Shown here in pieces: positions 17,276 through 59,134 of a stretch of DNA of 64,000 bases. Under the pieces are notes generated by a model, which saw only the letters and a program-made list of their open reading frames with translations, did no database searches and had not been told where the DNA came from. Source of the stretch: an uncultured Acidimicrobiaceae bacterium (GTDB lineage: Bacteria; Actinomycetota; Acidimicrobiia; Acidimicrobiales; RAAP-2); the NCBI GenBank assembly GCA_963829235.1, contig CAWHIF010000007.1:67723-131722 (forward strand). The letters run 5' to 3'. Position 1 is the stretch's first letter. Each line of letters begins with the position of its first letter. Position numbers and translations under genes: made by a program.

Positions 17276-18433
17276 ATGAGCGATCCGTTGGCACCAACGC
17301 CCGAACACCATTTCACCTTCGGACTCTGGACGGTCGGCAATCCGGGGCGTGACCCGTTCGGTCATGAGGTCCGAGCGCCGCTCGATCCCGTGGTTGTCGT
17401 GCATCATCTCGCCGAGCTGGGGGCCTACGGCGTGAGCTTCCACGACGACGACCTCGTGCCCTACGGATCTTCGGCGGCCGAGCGCCAGATCGTTCTCAAG
17501 CGCTTCGCCCGGGCGCTCGCCGAGACGGGGCTGAAGGTCCCGATGGTCACGACCAACCTCTTCTCCCGACCGATCTTCAAAGAGGGCGCATTCACCGCCA
17601 ATGATCCGCGGATTCGCCGATTCGCCATCAGAAAGGCGTGTGAGGCGATCGACCTCGGCGCCGAGTTCGGCGCCGAGGTCTTCGTGCTGTGGGGGGGCCG
17701 AGAAGGAGTCGAGGCCGATGCGGCCAAGGATGTCCGGGACGCACTGGATCGATACAAGGAGGCAGTGGACCTCTGCTGCGAGTACATCCGCGATCAGGGT
17801 CTGACCATGCGCATCGCCATGGAGCCCAAGCCGAACGAACCGCGGGGGGATATCTTCCTTCCGACGGTCGGGCACGTCCTGGCCTTCATCGGAGCACTGG
17901 AATGGCCGGACATGGTGGGGGTCAATCCCGAGTTCGCCCACGAGACGATGAGCGGCCTCTCCTTCTCCCACGCCGTGGCCCAGGTCCTGTGGCACAAGAA
18001 GCTCTTCCATATCGATCTCAATGCCCAGCGGATCGGGAAGTTCGACCAGGACTTCCGCTTCGGCTCCGAGGGAATCCGGGACGCCTTCTACCTGGTGAAG
18101 GTGCTCGAGGACGCCCACTGGGACGGCATGAAGCACTTCGATGCACACCCCTACCGGACCGAGGACACCGCCGGTGTCTGGGAGTTTGCCCGCGGGTGCA
18201 TCCGCACCTACCTGATTCTGGCGGAGAAGGTCCGCCGTTTCGGGGAGGACAAAGAGATCCAGGAGGCCCTGCGTGTGGCCAAGGTCTCCGATCTGAGCGA
18301 GAGGACCGCATCGGGTGGTGGGCTCGCCGATATCCGCAAAGGGTCTTATGACGAGGATGCGCTCGCCGCTCAGGGCTACGGCCACGAACGCCTCGACCAG
18401 CTGGTGACGGAGCTGTTGCTCGGGGTGCGGTAG
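17276..18433 (+). CDS. xylA: xylose isomerase
   Basis: This is the actinobacterial short-type XylA, with FTFGLWTVGNPGRDPFG, VSFHDDDL, FVLWGGREG, IAMEPKPNEPRGDIFLPTVGH, VNPEFAHE and HIDLNAQ. Confidence 0.97.
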   Translation: MSDPLAPTPEHHFTFGLWTVGNPGRDPFGHEVRAPLDPVVVVHHLAELGAYGVSFHDDDLVPYGSSAAERQIVLKRFARALAETGLKVPMVTTNLFSRPIFKEGAFTANDPRIRRFAIRKACEAIDLGAEFGAEVFVLWGGREGVEADAAKDVRDALDRYKEAVDLCCEYIRDQGLTMRIAMEPKPNEPRGDIFLPTVGHVLAFIGALEWPDMVGVNPEFAHETMSGLSFSHAVAQVLWHKKLFHIDLNAQRIGKFDQDFRFGSEGIRDAFYLVKVLEDAHWDGMKHFDAHPYRTEDTAGVWEFARGCIRTYLILAEKVRRFGEDKEIQEALRVAKVSDLSERTASGGGLADIRKGSYDEDALAAQGYGHERLDQLVTELLLGVR

Positions 18434-19857
18434 TGCCACTGGTCGTCGGCGTCGACTCCTCGACGACATCGTGCAAGGTCCAGGTGCGCGATGCCGACTC
18501 CGGCGCGCTCGTTGCCTCGGGACGGGCCCCTCATCCCCCGACCACACCACCCCGCAGCGAGCAGGACCCCCACGCCTGGGAGGTGGCGTTCTCCCGGGCC
18601 GGTGCCATGGCCGGCATGAATGACACCCGGCCTGCCGCCATATCGTTTGCCGCGCAACAGCACGGTGCCGTCATCCTCGACGTTCACGGGGACGTCGTGC
18701 GCCCGGCCAAGTTGTGGAACGACACCGAGGCGGCGACGGACGCCCAGGAGCTTCGGGATGAACTCCCGGGCGGGGCAGGCGCATGGGCGCAAGCGTGTGG
18801 AAGCGTTCCCCTGGCCAGCTTCACCATCAGCAAGCTTCGCTGGCTGCGGCGCTGCGAGCCCGAATCGTTCCGCCGCATGAGCTCTGTGCTCCTCCCCCAC
18901 GACTGGCTCACCTTTCGGCTGACCGGAGAAATGACGACCGACCGGGGAGATGCCTCGGGAACCGGCTACTGGTCCCCGGCGGAGGGTCGCTATCGACCCG
19001 ACCTGCTGAGCCTGGTGGACGACGGCGTCGACTGGGACTCCCTGCTCCCGGTGGTGCTCGGCCCCCGGGCCACAGCCGGGAAGTGGGGAGATACCGGATC
19101 GACCGTGGGGCCGGGGACGGGCGACAACATGGCCAGTGCCCTGGGCCTCGGCCTGCGTCCCGGCGACCTCTCCCTCAGCTTCGGGACGAGCGGGGTGGCC
19201 TGCACGGTCACGGGCGAACCACGTGCTGATCCTTCCGGGACGGTGGCCGGGTTCGCCGACGCCACCGGCCGGTTCCTCCCCCTCGTCTGCACCCTCAACG
19301 CCACCAAGGTGACCGACTCGGTGGCCCGGCTCCTCGGCGTCACCCCCGAGGAGTTCGATGCACTGGCGCTGTCAGCGCCTGCCGGTGCCGGCGGTTTGGT
19401 CCTCGTCCCTCATTTCGACGGGGAGCGGACGCCGGACCGACCGGCGGCAACCGGCACACTGGTCGGCATCAGGAACGACGTCTCCGCGGCCAACCTGGCC
19501 AGGGCCGCCGTGGAAGGGGTGGTCTGCAACCTCCTCGGGGGCGTCGACTCCCTGGTCACGGGCGATCGGACCAGCGGACAGCGGGTGTTCCTCGTCGGAG
19601 GTGGGGCCCGGAGCGCTGCGTACCGGCAGATCGTGGCAGACCTCCTGGGCTCTCCGGTGATCGTGCCGTCGGAGACCGACCTGGTCGCCGCGGGCGCAGC
19701 CGTCCAGGCGGCTGCGGTGCTTCACGGGTGCGACGTCGACACGCTGGCCGAGGCGTGGAACCTCGGGGCGGGCGATGTCGTCGAGCCCGACGACGCAGCT
19801 GATCGGGCGGCTGTCCGTGCGGCATTCACGGAGGCGACGAAGGCAGCGGCACGATGA
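18433..19857 (+). CDS. xylB: xylulokinase (FGGY family)
   Basis: GTG 18433 overlaps the xylA stop codon. Family motifs are VVGVDSSTTSCKV, AKLWNDT, GTGDNMASALGLG and FLVGGGARSAAYRQIVADLLG. Confidence 0.92.
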   Translation: MPLVVGVDSSTTSCKVQVRDADSGALVASGRAPHPPTTPPRSEQDPHAWEVAFSRAGAMAGMNDTRPAAISFAAQQHGAVILDVHGDVVRPAKLWNDTEAATDAQELRDELPGGAGAWAQACGSVPLASFTISKLRWLRRCEPESFRRMSSVLLPHDWLTFRLTGEMTTDRGDASGTGYWSPAEGRYRPDLLSLVDDGVDWDSLLPVVLGPRATAGKWGDTGSTVGPGTGDNMASALGLGLRPGDLSLSFGTSGVACTVTGEPRADPSGTVAGFADATGRFLPLVCTLNATKVTDSVARLLGVTPEEFDALALSAPAGAGGLVLVPHFDGERTPDRPAATGTLVGIRNDVSAANLARAAVEGVVCNLLGGVDSLVTGDRTSGQRVFLVGGGARSAAYRQIVADLLGSPVIVPSETDLVAAGAAVQAAAVLHGCDVDTLAEAWNLGAGDVVEPDDAADRAAVRAAFTEATKAAAR

Positions 19858-20890
19858 ATTCCGAGGCCGGCTCTCACTCGGTCCCGACCCCGACCCGGCC
19901 CGGGGCGCGAGCGACGGTCGGAAAGCCCGCTCAACGATGCGGGCCGGCAGCCGCGGAGGCGAACTCGAGCCCGGCCCCGGCCTTCCCGTGCAACAGGTCG
20001 ACTTCTGCCACTTCGAGCAGGTGGACCGCGATGTCGCCATCCCCTGATCGGCCACACGTGCAGAGAAACCATGGGGCACAGCTGCCATCATCGGCCGACA
20101 GCGGCGGAACTGGCATCGGCTCATGGTGATCCATAGGCGTGCTTCTTACCCCGAAGATCCTGCCTTCAACCGGAATTCCTTCGGCAGCCCGAGGAATTCC
20201 ATGCCGCCACCACCAGGATCCGGTCCCGAGGGCCGGAATCGATCCCCTCGACGGCGCCAGCCTCGTCCGCCCGGGGAGAGCCCGCCCGTGCGCCCGGGAG
20301 AGGACGCGCTGGTCCCTTGCTGTGGAAGGGACCGGCGCACAAGCCCGTATCAGGAAAGGAAAGCGGCATCCTTCTCTTCCGAACGGGCTGCCCAGCCATA
20401 CCCCGGAGCCACGGGTCCCAAACATCACATCTCACTCCGAGGATCGGGGACGACTCATCGGCGATCGGTGGACAAAGAGGTTTGCCGGGTCCTGACCCCG
20501 GGTATTGGCATTCCGTGCCCATGCACTCGTGTTCAAAGGCTGGTTCGGATTCCACTCCCGGCTCGGAGGTGTGTCCGGCTTGCCTCTGTGCCGGCAACCT
20601 CCCACGCTGCCGAGGGGACGGACGGACGCCAACCAGGCGTCGCCGCCACGCGTGGGCTTCTACTGTCCGGCCGATCGAGCCAGGTCCCGCCGCCTGGTTC
20701 CCGGCCTGGCCCGCACCTTCTGTCGCAACAGGGGTCGCAACAGGACCCCGAGCGGTCCCCACGTGAATTCGATGGGCTCACTCACCGCGAATTGGGAACT
20801 CATGGGTGGAGCGCACGGATACGTCGATTCGTCTCCGGCTGATGGCCAGCCGGGATGCAGCGAGCCAACGAGCGAACATCGGAGGAGACC
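19858..20890 (+). other. about 1 kb spacer without a convincing ORF, rich in nested hairpins (candidate structured RNA or decayed DNA)
   Basis: All six frames give only Arg/Pro/Gly-rich overlapping ORFs. Perfect stems include GGAATTCC 20172-79 with 20193-200. GTGCGCC 20288-94 pairs with GGCGCAC 20334-40 and encloses GGTCCCTT/AAGGGACC. AGCCCGT 20342-48 pairs with ACGGGCT 20383-89. GGAGGT 20565-70 pairs with ACCTCC 20597-602 and encloses CCGGC/GCCGG. Further pairs are GACGCC 20625-30 with GGCGTC 20636-41, and GGGGTC 20731-36 with GACCCC 20744-49. Confidence 0.4.
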
Positions 20891-21520
20891 ATGAGGGTGC
20901 GGTTGCAGGCGATCACAATTGGTTGTGTCCTATTCATTGCCCTCTTCTCCTCGATGGCGGCATCGACGTCTGTCGCCACTGCCGCGACCTCGAACAGCAG
21001 CGCTGATCTCTATCCGATCGATTACGTCGTCAAGGCGACGACCACCCTGGCGAAGCTGAATGAAACGGTCACCGTACCCCCGGGCACCTTCAAGGGATCT
21101 CTCAACCTGGACAACTTCGTCCTGCGCGGAGTGTTGAGCCTCCCACCCGCGTCGACCACGGTGAGCCTGGGGGGAATCGGTCTGGCCACGGCAACCTTCA
21201 GGCTGGCTGAGACAAAGCCCGTCACCGGAAAGGTGAACCTCTCGGCATTGAAGGTCACCGCGACGTCGACCTTCAATGTCCTGGTCACCTCGGTGAAGCC
21301 GCTCGGGCTTCCGGTGAACCTCGTGGGCAACGACTGCGGAACGGCGACGCCGGTGTCGGTGACCTTCAGCGGGAAGTTCTCGTTCAGCGGAGCCTCGAAG
21401 TTCTCCGGCACGTACACCATCCCACCCCTCCAGAATTGCGGGTTGGCGACGACGGTCCTCAACGAGGTGATCCCGGGGCCGGGCAACGTGTTCAGCGCTT
21501 CGTTCGCGCCGAAGAGCTGA
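20891..21520 (+). CDS. secreted hypothetical protein
   Basis: ATG 20891 follows GGAGGAG. The signal peptide reads MRVRLQAITIGCVLFIALFSSMAASTSVATA. The mature part is Thr/Ser/Val-rich and beta-strand-like, with two Cys (NDCG, QNCG). I recognise no family. Confidence 0.7.
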   Translation: MRVRLQAITIGCVLFIALFSSMAASTSVATAATSNSSADLYPIDYVVKATTTLAKLNETVTVPPGTFKGSLNLDNFVLRGVLSLPPASTTVSLGGIGLATATFRLAETKPVTGKVNLSALKVTATSTFNVLVTSVKPLGLPVNLVGNDCGTATPVSVTFSGKFSFSGASKFSGTYTIPPLQNCGLATTVLNEVIPGPGNVFSASFAPKS

Positions 21521-21937: not shown

Positions 21938-22279
21938 ATGGAACACACATTCACCGTTTCGGTTGAGAGTGGCGGGCAATATTCCGTGGTCTCGGTGGTC
22001 GGCGAGATAGATAGTGCGACCGCCCCCGAACTCCGCGACGGCCTGCACGAAGCCACTGCCTCGGGGCCGTCATTGCTGGTGGTGGACCTCCTCCAGGTCA
22101 CATTCATCGACTCAACGGCTCTGGGAGTGCTGATCGAGGCATCGAATCGGGCCGAAACCGAGGGGCAGATGATGCGAATCGTTGTCTCTGAGCCGAGGAT
22201 CCTCAAAGTCTTCGAGATCACCGGCCTCACCGAGATCTTCGCAATCCGAACCTCCCGCGAGGAAGCGCTCGCTGGATAA
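21938..22279 (+). CDS. STAS-domain anti-sigma-factor antagonist (RsbV/SpoIIAA-like)
   Basis: It contains VVSVVGEIDSATAPELRDGL, then LLVVDLLQVTFIDSTALGVL (the phosphorylatable Ser context), then KVFEITGLTEIF. Confidence 0.87.
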   Translation: MEHTFTVSVESGGQYSVVSVVGEIDSATAPELRDGLHEATASGPSLLVVDLLQVTFIDSTALGVLIEASNRAETEGQMMRIVVSEPRILKVFEITGLTEIFAIRTSREEALAG

Positions 22280-22313
22280 GCGAACCGGTTACAGGAGTGG
22301 ATGGGGTGACCCG

Positions 22314-22706
22314 ATGACAGACATTGTGGAACTGAGTTTCCCGGTCATGGCGGACCTGGTGGTGCTGGCCCGACTGGCGGCGTCGACGGTGGCCACCCGC
22401 GCCGGCTTCGACGTCGAGGAGATCGAGGACCTGAAACTGGCGGTCGACGAGCTGTGCGTCTCACTGGTCCACGAGCGAACCAACGGCACGCTGGCTCTCC
22501 GGTTCACCCAGGACGAGGACACGGTTGAGGTGTCGTGCACGTATCAGCCGATCCTTGGTGGCACGGTCGAAGAACAATCGGTTCCCCTGACAGAAGGCCT
22601 GTCCGAGCGGATCCTCGATGCGCTCGTGGACGAACACGGCAACGACCACCGAGACGGTCTGCCCCGGGCCTGGTTGCGCAAGCGGCGGGCCCGCCAACGA
22701 GCCTGA
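22314..22706 (+). CDS. RsbW-like anti-sigma factor with degenerate GHKL kinase motifs
   Basis: Its position (between STAS and sigma, TGATG overlap with the sigma gene) and size (130 aa) fit RsbW/SpoIIAB. The N-box region reads AVDELCVSLVHE, with no Asn. No DxGxG G1 box is visible (VEVSCTYQPILGG). Confidence 0.7.
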   Translation: MTDIVELSFPVMADLVVLARLAASTVATRAGFDVEEIEDLKLAVDELCVSLVHERTNGTLALRFTQDEDTVEVSCTYQPILGGTVEEQSVPLTEGLSERILDALVDEHGNDHRDGLPRAWLRKRRARQRA

Positions 22707-23443
22707 TGAGCCCACCGGAGCGACCCCCAAGGTCGACTCGGGAAGAGTTCGTCGAATTCGCCCTCACGCGCGACGAGCGGCTCCGCAACGAGCTGGTGGA
22801 GTCCCATCTGGGATTGGCACATCAGTTGGCCCGCCGATTCGTCAGTCGGGGAGAGACCTATGACGATCTCGTGCAAGTGGCCTCCCTGGCCCTCGTCAAG
22901 TCAGTCGATCGCTTCGATCCTGACCGCGGCGTCGAGTTCAGCAGCTTCGCCACCCGCACGGTTGTCGGCGAGCTCAAACGTCACTTTCGGGACCGCGGCT
23001 GGGCCATCCGGGCACCTCGTCGTATCCAGGAGCTCTACCTCCAAATCGGACCGGCCATCGAGTCCCTCTCCCACGACCTGGGCAGACCGCCCACCATCAC
23101 CGAAATGGCGGAGTCGATCGGCGTCACCGAGGAGGCCGTCCTCGAGGCCCTCGAGGCTGGAAAGAGCTACCACCTCTCTTCGATAGATGCGCAAGATCGC
23201 AAAGAGGGCACCATCCTCGACCGCCTGGGCGACGTCGACGCCGGCTTCGACGGGGCCGAGGACCGACTGGCACTGGCGATATCTCTTGCCGACCTTTCGG
23301 AGCGACAGCGAACAATTCTCGGCCTCCGGTTCGTGGACGGTCTCACCCAATCGGAGATCGCAGAGCGCGTCGGGGTGAGCCAGATGCATGTGTCGCGACT
23401 ACTGGCCGACAGTCTGGCCGCGCTGAGAAGAGCGTTCGAATGA
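22706..23443 (+). CDS. SigB/SigF-family (group 3) RNA polymerase sigma factor
   Basis: Region 2 reads YDDLVQVASLALVKSVDRFDPDRGVEFSSFATRTVVGELKRHFRD. Region 3 reads PTITEMAESIGVTEEAV. Region 4 reads LSERQRTILGLRFVDGLTQSEIAERVGVSQMHVSRLL. Confidence 0.9.
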   Translation: MSPPERPPRSTREEFVEFALTRDERLRNELVESHLGLAHQLARRFVSRGETYDDLVQVASLALVKSVDRFDPDRGVEFSSFATRTVVGELKRHFRDRGWAIRAPRRIQELYLQIGPAIESLSHDLGRPPTITEMAESIGVTEEAVLEALEAGKSYHLSSIDAQDRKEGTILDRLGDVDAGFDGAEDRLALAISLADLSERQRTILGLRFVDGLTQSEIAERVGVSQMHVSRLLADSLAALRRAFE

Positions 23444-23588
23444 GAGCCCGGTCGCTCAACAGGGGCGTGAGCTACTATGTCAATCGTGCCGGAAAGTATC
23501 CACCGCTCCTGGTGAGCGAAGGAAAGGGCGGTTCGGCGGAGTTGGCTCCCAAGAGATCCCTCGACGACAAGACCATCCTGGGGCAGCA

Positions 23589-23912
23589 ATGACGGAACTA
23601 GATGACAGCGTGACCGCCTCGGTCAATGGCACCCTCGATCCCACTGGAGGGCTCACGCTCTTCCTCGCCGGGGAGCTCGACATCGTCAGTGTCGATGGTG
23701 TGAAGGAGGTCATCACCAAGCTCTTCGCCAGCAATCCACGGCGGGTGGTGTTCGACCTGGAGCGCCTGACCTTCATGGACAGTTCGGGGATCGCCCTGAT
23801 GCTACAGATGTCGAGGCGGGTGGATTCTGTCGAGGTCGTCAATGCCACGCCGATCGTGCGCAGGGTGATCGAAGCGACGGGGCTCGATCAGATACTCGGG
23901 CTCCAGTCATGA
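23589..23912 (+). CDS. STAS-domain anti-sigma-factor antagonist (second copy)
   Basis: It contains LFLAGELDIVSVDGVKEV, RVVFDLERLTFMDSSGIALML and RRVIEATGLDQIL. It shares an ATGA overlap with the next gene. Confidence 0.85.
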   Translation: MTELDDSVTASVNGTLDPTGGLTLFLAGELDIVSVDGVKEVITKLFASNPRRVVFDLERLTFMDSSGIALMLQMSRRVDSVEVVNATPIVRRVIEATGLDQILGLQS

Positions 23913-24508
23913 CCCTTCGGCGATCGTTCAGTATGGATCCGATGTCGGTAGCCGCCAGTCGGCGATTCGTCGGGGATACCCTGACCGACCTCCCAACCGA
24001 CATACAGGAAGCAGCTGTCTTGATGGTGTCCGAACTGGCCACCAATGCCATCGTGCATGCGACCACCGGATTTGAAGTCACCATCGAGCGGACGAAGTCG
24101 AAACTGCGGGTTGAGGTGGCCGACCTCGGCGGGGGCGAGCCGGAACTGCAGATGCCGTCGGTCAGTGAGCCCCACGGCAGAGGACTCCAGATCGTCAGGG
24201 AGCTGTCCGACGAGTGGGGCATCATCGATAGCGACGATGACAGGGGCAAGACCGTGTGGTACGAGGTCCGCGTGGGTCCGGCAAGGTTGCTCGACAGCGA
24301 CGATCCCACCACTCCGGAAGCGACCCGCCGGAAGGCGCATCAGGGGTCCGGGCAGGCGTCGAGAACCAGCCCGAGGACCCTGCGTCAGGAATCTGATCCG
24401 TCCGGCTGCGCGGGTGCGGATACAGCCCCCGACGGGCACCCCGGCCAGACGACGGAGGACCACGAGCACCCGTGTCCCTGCAGGTGGATGCAAACCTCGG
24501 TGGCCTGA
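23909..24508 (+). CDS. anti-sigma regulatory Ser/Thr kinase (HATPase_c_2-type) with a disordered C-terminal tail
   Basis: GHKL motifs are intact: N-box SELATNAIVHA, G1 VADLGGGEP and G2-like HGRGLQIVRELSDEWG. About 65 C-terminal residues are low-complexity. Confidence 0.82.
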   Translation: MTLRRSFSMDPMSVAASRRFVGDTLTDLPTDIQEAAVLMVSELATNAIVHATTGFEVTIERTKSKLRVEVADLGGGEPELQMPSVSEPHGRGLQIVRELSDEWGIIDSDDDRGKTVWYEVRVGPARLLDSDDPTTPEATRRKAHQGSGQASRTSPRTLRQESDPSGCAGADTAPDGHPGQTTEDHEHPCPCRWMQTSVA

Positions 24509-58825: not shown

Positions 58826-59134
58826 AAGGCGGCGGACGATTCGGCTCACCGAGGTACCTCCGAGTCCCGGTGTCGTGAACGAGGCGTGAGCATGGAGTCG
58901 ACCGAACTCAGGCGGTCGGGCTGACGCCGCGACTCATACGACCGTCTATCGTGGAAGGGACACCCCGTAACGCAAAGGGCTATGGGCTCGTTTGAGAGAG
59001 GCAAGGTGTGAGGGCCGGCGTCTGCCTGCCCAGAAGTCCGAACGGGGGACAATGGATGAGATCCACTGCCGAGACTCCTCCGAATTGATGATGCCGGCGT
59101 TTAGAGCGAGATCTTGAAAGGGTATGGAGCTTCG

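Follow-up and report, generated by a model that had tools for sequence, protein, structure and literature searches.

A candidate SigB/SigF-type control region with a putative two-hairpin RNA, two small open reading frames and a dispersed hairpin repeat in an uncultured Acidimicrobiaceae bacterium

The stretch of DNA analysed here (hereafter the window) comprises 64,000 nucleotides of a 4.9-Mb metagenome-assembled genome of an uncultured Acidimicrobiaceae bacterium with a G+C content of 67% (G000; contig C7, positions 67723-131722). It contains a gap of about 1 kb (19858-20890), framed on the left by a xylose isomerase/FGGY-kinase gene pair (xylA/xylB, 17276-19857) and on the right by a gene encoding a secreted protein of 209 amino acids (20891-21520 on the plus strand, with the ATG at 20891 and a Shine-Dalgarno (SD) sequence, GGAGGAG, at 20881-20887). 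This last gene has orthologues at the same position in the genomes G085, G060, G004, G001 and G023 (throughout this work, G numbers other than G000 designate other genomes of the same genus). Further downstream, positions 21938-24508 encode a STAS protein, a RsbW-like protein, a sigma factor, a second STAS protein and a kinase. The open reading frame (ORF) of the sigma factor (22535-23443) reaches 257.8 bits against the NCBIfam model TIGR02980 (SigB/SigF/SigG subfamily; cutoff 234.35), and the distance between the gap and this SigB/F-type sigma factor with its partner-switching genes (STAS, HATPase_c_2/RsbW-like) is 1.6 kb, the sigma gene being downstream. An earlier note on this DNA had described the gap as being without a credible ORF, packed with perfect nested stems and possibly corresponding to a novel large structured RNA. 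From our analysis of the sequence and of its relatives, the gap is likely to be a mosaic composed of three promoter-like sites, two small ORFs, an RNA of about 100 nt with two hairpins and one copy of a repeat. With moderate confidence in the model as a whole, we interpret it as a control region from which an island of a SigB/SigF-type stress regulon would be transcribed divergently.

The syntenic region was identified in four of 100 genomes of the genus (G085, G004, G060 and G001; 69-88% identity), and a fifth, more distant orthologue was recovered in G023 with a covariance model. Apart from a repeat of about 50 nt, no second copy of the 1-kb region is present in G000 itself. The alignment of the orthologous regions exhibits conserved blocks alternating with indel-rich spacers. 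In G001, a gene encoding a SpoIIE/PP2C (RsbU-like) phosphatase of 549 amino acids is located on the minus strand (L016 5687-7336, G001:C9) between the two halves of the region, at the place corresponding to window positions 20433/20515, i.e., exactly between the two divergent promoter-like sites described below as P2 and P(+). Neither this gene nor a remnant of it was found at this site in G000, G085, G060, G004 and G023, so that it corresponds either to an insertion in G001 or to a clean loss in the other genomes. Since the phosphatase gene separates the two halves in G001, a single transcript of about 1 kb is ruled out.

A search of the window for the pattern GTTT-N14-17-GGGTA retrieved four sites, compared with 0.25 expected. 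Three of these exact sites are grouped within 4.2 kb around the sigma operon (20423..20399 on the minus strand, 20480-20504 and 24552 on the plus strand). The fourth exact match (GTTT-N17-GGGTA, 59099-59124, plus strand) is far from the sigma locus. Within the gap, the site P(+) (20480-20505, plus strand, GTTT-N16-GGGTAT) faces the small ORF that we call ORF c, the secreted-protein gene and the partner-switching/sigma operon. The distal leftward site P2 (20423..20398, minus strand, GTTT-N16-GGGTAT) is divergent from P(+), at a distance of 56 nt. The two boxes of P(+), GTTT and GGGTA, are invariant in six orthologues and are always separated by a spacer of 16 nt, most positions of which are variable. 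Those of P2 are kept in G000, G085, G060, G001, G110, G099 and G023, with differing spacers of 15-17 nt. A third, proximal site, P1 (20170..20146, minus strand, GTTG-N15-GGGTAA), precedes the other small ORF, ORF a. Its -35 box reads GTTG, ATTG or GTTT across seven genomes, six of which retain the -10 box GGGTA, and both the spacer and the stretch leading to the ATG of ORF a vary among genomes. A scan of the region for sigma-70 promoters gave zero sites. Their local clustering, the conservation of their boxes and the adjacent sigma gene make P1, P2 and P(+) likely candidates for SigB/F-type promoters.

The motif GTTT-N14-19-GGGTA corresponds to the SigF consensus of Mycobacterium smegmatis (PMC4694148, PMC8346170), in which SigF promoters are often located 8-11 nt from the start codon (PMC4694148), and the SigB consensus of Bacillus subtilis is GTTTAA-N12-14-GGG(A/T)A(A/T) (PMC4694148, PMC8346170). 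The -35 (GTTT) and -10 (GGGTA) boxes found here are identical to those of M. smegmatis SigF, with a spacing of 15-16 nt, and a start codon follows the -10 box by about 10-12 nt, as in many SigF genes of that species. The local motif also fits the consensus of B. subtilis SigB and of the SigB homologues of Streptomyces, and, as in the SigF/SigB systems, a sigma factor of the SigB/F/G family is encoded next door together with STAS and RsbW-like partners. The -35 box of P1, in contrast, deviates from the consensus (GTTG or ATTG), and the consensus itself comes from organisms other than this Acidimicrobiia host. The link between the neighbouring sigma factor and the three sites is one that we infer by analogy with other Actinobacteria.

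Another grouping of the same motif was observed elsewhere in G000: on contig C3, at about 587-618 kb, four GTTT-N15/16-GGGTA sites occur within 30 kb, each with a start codon 10-12 nt downstream. This cluster adjoins a paralogue with a SpoIIE domain (C3:586972-587580) and may represent a second island of the same sigma regulon.

The candidate two-hairpin RNA of about 100 nt is located directly behind P2 (20389..20290, minus strand) and consists of hairpin 2 (hp2, 20388..20343), which starts about 10 nt after the P2 hexamer, followed by hairpin 1 (hp1, 20338..20306). Throughout the lineages, the stem of hp2 joins a 5' arm that is purine-rich and SD-like to a 3' arm that is CU-rich and anti-SD-like. 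hp1 is a GC-rich stem of 13 bp whose loop, CCACAGC, is nearly invariant. The 100 nt between 20389 and 20290 have a minimum free energy of -48.9 kcal/mol (z -3.46), and none of 200 shuffled sequences was as stable. We infer the 5' end of the RNA from the position of P2, and its 3' end from hp1 and from the drop in conservation past 20295. Besides G000, the unit formed by P2, hp2 and hp1 is present in the four genomes with synteny and in three others: G110 and G099 carry it at a different locus together with ORF a, and G023 carries it with no ORF a. In the eight sequences, 92.8% of the cells of the named structure are paired, versus 41-58% when the partners are slid along the alignment, and 5 of the 13 pairs of hp1 are changed on both sides (0-2 such pairs in the slid controls). 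Read in the minus orientation, the hairpins contain 30 G-U and 7 A-C cells. Because G-U pairs outnumber A-C pairs in this orientation, the structure appears to act as a single strand, and on the strand predicted from P2.

The covariance model of this unit (R1) matches window positions 20292-20426 in G000 and detects no second copy in this genome. No Rfam family was assigned to the two-hairpin RNA, either at the locus or at the related loci. Exact complements of the hp1 loop or of the CU-rich arm were searched within the window as indications of RNA targets, with nothing convincing. We also considered an upstream ORF located inside hp2, GGAAGAGAAGGAUG (MPLSFPD...), and rejected it: the frame is shifted in G085, and in G060 four residues are changed with the stem kept.

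Leftward of this unit lies ORF a (20134..19931, minus strand), which would encode a protein of 67 amino acids (MDHHEPMPVPPLSADDGSCAPWFLCTCGRSGDGDIAVHLLEVAEVDLLHGK...) and which, judging from its coding signature and its orthologues, is a real protein-coding small gene. In its frame, 51% of the codon differences between genomes are synonymous (a fraction of 0.51) and no orthologue contains a stop codon; the fractions are 0.09-0.32 in the other five frames, four of which contain stops. The view that the gap lacks a credible ORF is accurate for long ones, and no Pfam or NCBIfam match was found in 19858-20890, but it fails for small ORFs, which do exist here, ORF a (19931-20134) being the clearest case. 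Its translated sequence was retrieved by TBLASTN with identities of 94% in G085, 91% in G004, 74% in G060, 85% in G001 and 73% in G110, where it is located in another genomic place. There is also a weaker relative in G111 and a frameshifted copy in G099. Two hypothetical proteins of 67 and 69 amino acids from the Joint Genome Institute (JGI) match ORF a, and a profile search against 1.84 billion representatives added a single relative of 51 amino acids; true relatives among these representatives number only three or four. WD40, FAST-kinase and ankyrin repeat proteins also gave matches, which were discarded since they look like noise at the level of a motif (G-x-S/T-G-D-G...LLE). ORF a has no match in Pfam, NCBIfam or PDB, a search with hidden Markov models detected no homologue outside the genus in 400 genomes of the order, and TBLASTN at the level of the family gave marginal matches only, with the exception of G111. 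On the evidence of these searches, ORF a is an orphan protein family confined to this genus. Its AlphaFold model is weak (predicted local distance difference test score of 57); it proposes a beta-hairpin and a helix and is too weak to justify a fold search.

Because the ATG of ORF a lies only 11-12 nt after the GGGTA box of P1, its mRNA would have almost no leader. Two GGAATTCC palindromes abut the -35 box of P1 on its upstream side and form an imperfect inverted repeat of 12 bp (20172-20200), the pairs of which are kept to varying degrees (8/8 in G085, 6/8 in both G060 and G004, 2/8 in G001); it is possibly an operator, and would be a candidate site for a regulator of ORF a. At its other end, ORF a converges with the xylB-like gene of the plus strand, and a hairpin, GCCCGC-N8-GCGGGC (19925..19944), is located at their 3' ends. 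Its loop holds the TGA stop codon of ORF a, its arms are kept in G085, G060 and G004, and UUUCC follows on the minus strand; the scan for U-tract terminators did not retain it.

On the opposite side of the P2/P(+) pair, ORF c (20515-20766, plus strand, 83 codons, (V)PMHSCSKAGSDSTPGSEVCPACLC...) is a probable leaderless small ORF. Its GTG start codon is located exactly 10 nt after the GGGTA box of P(+) in six of six genomes, while the 10 intervening nucleotides vary. The first 35 codons or so display a three-base periodicity, which again qualifies the statement that no credible ORF is present. Substitutions at the third codon position predominate over those at the other two (13 versus 3 and 5 in G060, 16 versus 2 and 10 in G001), and the differences in G023 are synonymous in seven of 12 conserved codons. 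The synonymous fraction amounts to 0.48, and constraint is visible in the first 25-35 codons only. The frame remains open to the same stop codon in four genomes (76-81 amino acids when counted from an internal ATG at 20521). In a search of the genus, ORF c had no homologue outside this clade, the matches being the syntenic orthologues and noise.

Work by Shell and colleagues in PLoS Genetics in 2015 reportedly describes leaderless small ORFs in mycobacteria. ORF a and ORF c would resemble these in starting at the predicted transcription start with no Shine-Dalgarno sequence. They differ in being known from sequence alone, in the restriction of constraint to the first 25-35 codons or so in ORF c, and in that both peptides are orphans.

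The unconstrained 3' part of ORF c contains one copy, about 52 nt long (20662-20713, plus strand), of a hairpin repeat resembling repetitive extragenic palindromic (REP) elements, with an interrupted stem of 18 bp and a conserved loop, GGUUCCGCC. A covariance model of this repeat (R2) detected 19 strong copies in G000 and between 1 and 21 copies per genome in 22 of 24 genomes of the genus, and only one weak match (E value of about 0.002) in 16 genomes of other families. Eight of the 18 pairs of the hairpin are changed on both sides while the loop is conserved, and the orientation found here has 21 G-U versus 6 A-C cells. The copies of G000 are mostly intergenic (17 of 19). Because the element at the orthologous position is degenerate in G023, the copy in the gap appears to have entered the unconstrained part of ORF c at a later time. 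As with REP elements and bacterial interspersed mosaic elements (BIMEs), the repeat measures about 50 nt, folds into a long imperfect hairpin, is intergenic and lineage-specific, occurs in about 20 copies per genome and is sometimes arranged in tandem. It differs from them in the strong conservation of its loop, in a G-U asymmetry that suggests a transcribed strand, and in the location of some copies at predicted transcript starts. Conserved hairpin repeats have also been reported in mycobacterial intergenic regions.

In the model that we propose for this locus, transcription would leave the gap in both directions. Leftward, P2 (20423..20398) would drive the RNA of about 100 nt, with the SD-like/CU-rich 5'-terminal hairpin first and the 13-bp GC-rich hairpin last, and P1 (20170..20146), located past a variable spacer, would drive ORF a (20134..19931, 67 aa) as a nearly leaderless gene. 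Rightward, the transcript initiated at P(+) (20480-20505) would open with the leaderless, short, cysteine-containing ORF (GTG at 20515), cross the copy of the REP-like repeat, enter the secreted-protein gene (20891) and possibly run on into the STAS/RsbW/sigma operon. All three units would probably be under the control of the neighbouring SigB/F-type sigma factor. The earlier note had also envisaged a very long 5' untranslated region of the secreted-protein gene. The right part of the gap, about 400 nt, does resemble the start of the transcript of this gene; it appears to open with a short leaderless ORF and includes a repeat, and is therefore not a dedicated structured untranslated region.

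Several observations weigh against this model or parts of it. The whole arrangement occurs in only about eight of the 100 genomes of the genus, and a search of 138 genomes from 35 other genera of the family with the covariance model of the two-hairpin unit gave nothing convincing. The covariation is drawn from eight sequences, which cover three genomic contexts and about four independent lineages. At the scale of the complete G000 genome, GTTT-N15-16-GGGTA has 31 matches, roughly the number expected from base composition and with no strong enrichment, and start codons 9-13 nt downstream of the motif are no commoner than for control motifs; as neither of these tests provided support, the case for the promoters relies on local clustering and conservation. 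In the case of ORF c, the frame is shifted in G001 past codon 23, no coding signature is visible in the 3' two-thirds, and the antisense frame sharing the wobble position fits equally well (synonymous fraction of 0.56 versus 0.48); the plus frame is preferred because of its fixed start beside a promoter-like site. Finally, hp1 is without a U-tract, so that the RNA may run on into ORF a.

This last point bears on another reading of the hairpins, in which the transcript from P2 would be longer and reach ORF a, hp2 and hp1 being its structured 5' leader and P1 a second promoter inside it. In that case, the hairpins would act in cis as a 5' stabiliser, as a helix of the RNA thermometer type between SD and anti-SD sequences, or as a processing site. 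No canonical U-tract terminator was found in 19700-21000, and the tail that follows hp1 is GUCCUCUCCC. ORF a is located downstream on the same strand in seven of the eight genomes, including the translocated copies of G110 and G099, and the pairing of an SD-like arm with a CU-rich arm in hp2 would suit a regulatory leader. The eighth genome, G023, argues in the other direction: the promoter and both hairpins are present, no ORF a is found within 420 nt, and the next gene encodes a permease. Moreover, the 130-nt spacer that separates hp1 from P1 shows poor conservation and many indels, and ORF a has a promoter-like site of its own at a distance of 11-12 nt from the ATG. Relative to this ATG, the SD-like arm of hp2 is about 230 nt away and, at this distance, cannot be the ribosome-binding site of ORF a. 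A leader reaching ORF a, and with it a cis-acting role of the hairpins, is a possibility that we take into account but consider doubtful. A stand-alone RNA is favoured by the arrangement in G023, by the lack of conservation in the spacer past hp1 and by the separate promoter-like site of ORF a, and the two-hairpin unit is most likely a sigma-dependent small RNA, the CU-rich arm or the CCACAGC loop of which would pair with target mRNAs.

In G099 (L021 ~1435-1580, G099:C8), the copy of ORF a is frameshifted and the -10 box of the proximal site is altered to AGGTA; the two-hairpin unit upstream is intact. Since the hairpin unit is kept there beside a frameshifted ORF a, the RNA can apparently outlive the small gene.

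The closest parallel to a stand-alone RNA of this kind is F6/SfdS of M. tuberculosis, a SigF-dependent small RNA of 102 nt (PMC8557902). In both cases, a structured RNA of about 100 nt would be located directly behind a SigF-type promoter in an actinobacterium, and pyrimidine-rich single-stranded or arm segments could, in the RNA described here, pair with ribosome-binding sites. The likeness is one of kind and not of homology: there is no sequence or Rfam match with F6/SfdS or with the 6C RNA, and no U-tract terminator follows the hairpins here. In addition, the two-hairpin family is restricted to one genus among the genomes searched and is presently a prediction from genome comparison. Looser parallels are the SigB-dependent small RNAs of Staphylococcus and Listeria and the 6C RNA of Actinobacteria, with its C-rich loops.

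The hairpins could alternatively work as DNA, either as palindromes bound by proteins or as REP-like substrates of recombination or transposition, and not as functional RNAs. The behaviour of the repeat at 20662-20713 is indeed REP-like, as it is dispersed, intergenic and without strict orientation (in G000, seven copies share the direction of the neighbouring gene and four oppose it), and hp2 of G110 resembles the repeat at its 5' end. Such a role is nevertheless unlikely for elements whose stems covary and whose loops are conserved, and in which G-U cells exceed A-C cells in one orientation (30 versus 7 in the two-hairpin unit, 21 versus 6 in the repeat). This excess counts against duplex operators because it is expected of RNA or of single-stranded folding.

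The earlier note had also mentioned decayed DNA. In its most specific form, the gap would be a decayed gene, for example for a SpoIIE/RsbU-like phosphatase, and the conserved blocks its slowly eroding fragments. The position of the SpoIIE gene of G001, exactly between the two halves, and the partner-switching nature of the locus, in which such a phosphatase fits, would be in line with this proposal. It is nevertheless highly improbable: the G001 phosphatase has no TBLASTN match in 19700-21000, none of the ORFs of at least 60 amino acids in the six frames matches Pfam or NCBIfam, the conserved blocks of G001 flank the phosphatase gene and are not parts of it, G023 likewise has no phosphatase at this site, and the blocks are under selection, as indicated by compensatory changes and synonymous bias.

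As for the large structured RNA, all the stems listed in the earlier note are present in the sequence at the positions given there. Folding was assessed in sliding windows of 150 nt on both strands against dinucleotide shuffles. The region has mean z scores of about -0.6 (plus strand) and -0.8 (minus strand), compared with -0.6 in the coding flank of xylA/xylB, where single windows reach -3.3 and -4.0. The region as a whole thus folds no better than its shuffled versions or than xylA/xylB, contrary to the idea that it is unusually structured, and its only outlier is 20300-20449 (z -2.8/-2.2). Because the scores of the region match those of the coding flank, perfect stems of 5-8 bp are to be expected by chance at 67% G+C. 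Most of the listed stems are not kept in the four syntenic relatives. GGGGTC/GACCCC and GACGCC/GGCGTC are disrupted, AGCCCGT/ACGGGCT retains a GCCC/GGGC core alone, and GTGCGCC/GGCGCAC was found in G000 only; GGTCCCTT/AAGGGACC, AGGA/UCCU and GGAA/UUCC are conserved. The restriction of GTGCGCC/GGCGCAC to G000 is explained by its 5' arm, which lies within an insertion of 22 nt (gggagagcccgcccgtgcgcccg, window 20274-20296). This insertion, present in G000 only, makes the GTGCGCC arm and resembles a local duplication of the adjacent sequence.

What survives of the proposal are the nested helices at 20288-20389, which are real and covarying; they account for about 100 nt only, on the minus strand and with a promoter-like site of their own. 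The comparison with related genomes, which had been suggested as a check, likewise supports a small hairpin unit conserved with compensatory changes, and not the 1 kb as a whole. That the region matches no known RNA class was correct: the best hits of a Rfam scan of 19600-21100 reached 18 bits (E values of 0.2-7), far under the gathering thresholds, no family of Rfam 15 (including RNase P, tmRNA, SRP, 6S, riboswitches, F6 and 6C) was detected in the region at permissive E values, and tRNA was the sole match at the related loci. Although many perfect stems are present and neither a Rfam family nor a long ORF accounts for the region, a single large non-coding RNA of a new class occupying the whole kilobase is hardly tenable, given ordinary folding scores equal to those of coding flanks, mostly unconserved stems, indel-rich spacers, structured parts on opposite strands, a protein-coding gene on one of these, a further protein gene of 1.9 kb in the middle of the region in G001, and the partial presence of the region in G110, G099 and G023. 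More generally, series of perfect stems and an absence of long ORFs say little in favour of a large RNA at 67% G+C.

Acidimicrobiia are abundant in soil and water and have hardly any experimental genetics, and this locus offers concrete, testable pieces of their general-stress circuitry: three conserved candidate promoters, a covariation-supported RNA outside Rfam, two putative orphan micro-proteins and a genus-specific structured repeat. It alters no general principle; its elements are of known kinds, here encountered in a new lineage.

Weak matches to the R1 model were obtained at several other loci of the genus: L042 (G075), L045 (G018), L050 (a second locus of G110) and L043, L047 and L049 (G105, G100 and G002, respectively), the last three being located upstream of a MarR-type gene. 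They have a common layout: first a GTTT-N16-GGGTA site, perfect in three of these loci, next a copy of the dispersed repeat, and last a GCGCCGGUCC-loop-GGACCGGCGC hairpin. Judging from this layout, two-hairpin units may form a larger family within the genus. The two-hairpin RNA of G110 has a 5' hairpin that begins with the GUCCGUC(A/G)AGC motif of the repeat. A rather speculative proposal is that the RNA at 20290-20389 belongs to a genus-wide family of small RNAs dependent on the stress sigma factor and made from a domesticated REP-like hairpin. If true, an uncultured lineage of Acidimicrobiia would have repeatedly recruited a selfish intergenic repeat to form the body of its regulatory RNAs.

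A different association of the repeat with a promoter was observed on contig C1 of G010 (L005 1470-1740), downstream of mfd, where three tandem copies are located behind a strong promoter of the housekeeping type (TTGACC-N18-TAATAT). The first hairpin begins about 10 nt after the -10 box, there is no Rfam match at this locus, and the orthologous place in G000 is C9:255983-256034. These tandem repeats may correspond to an abundant repeat-built RNA.

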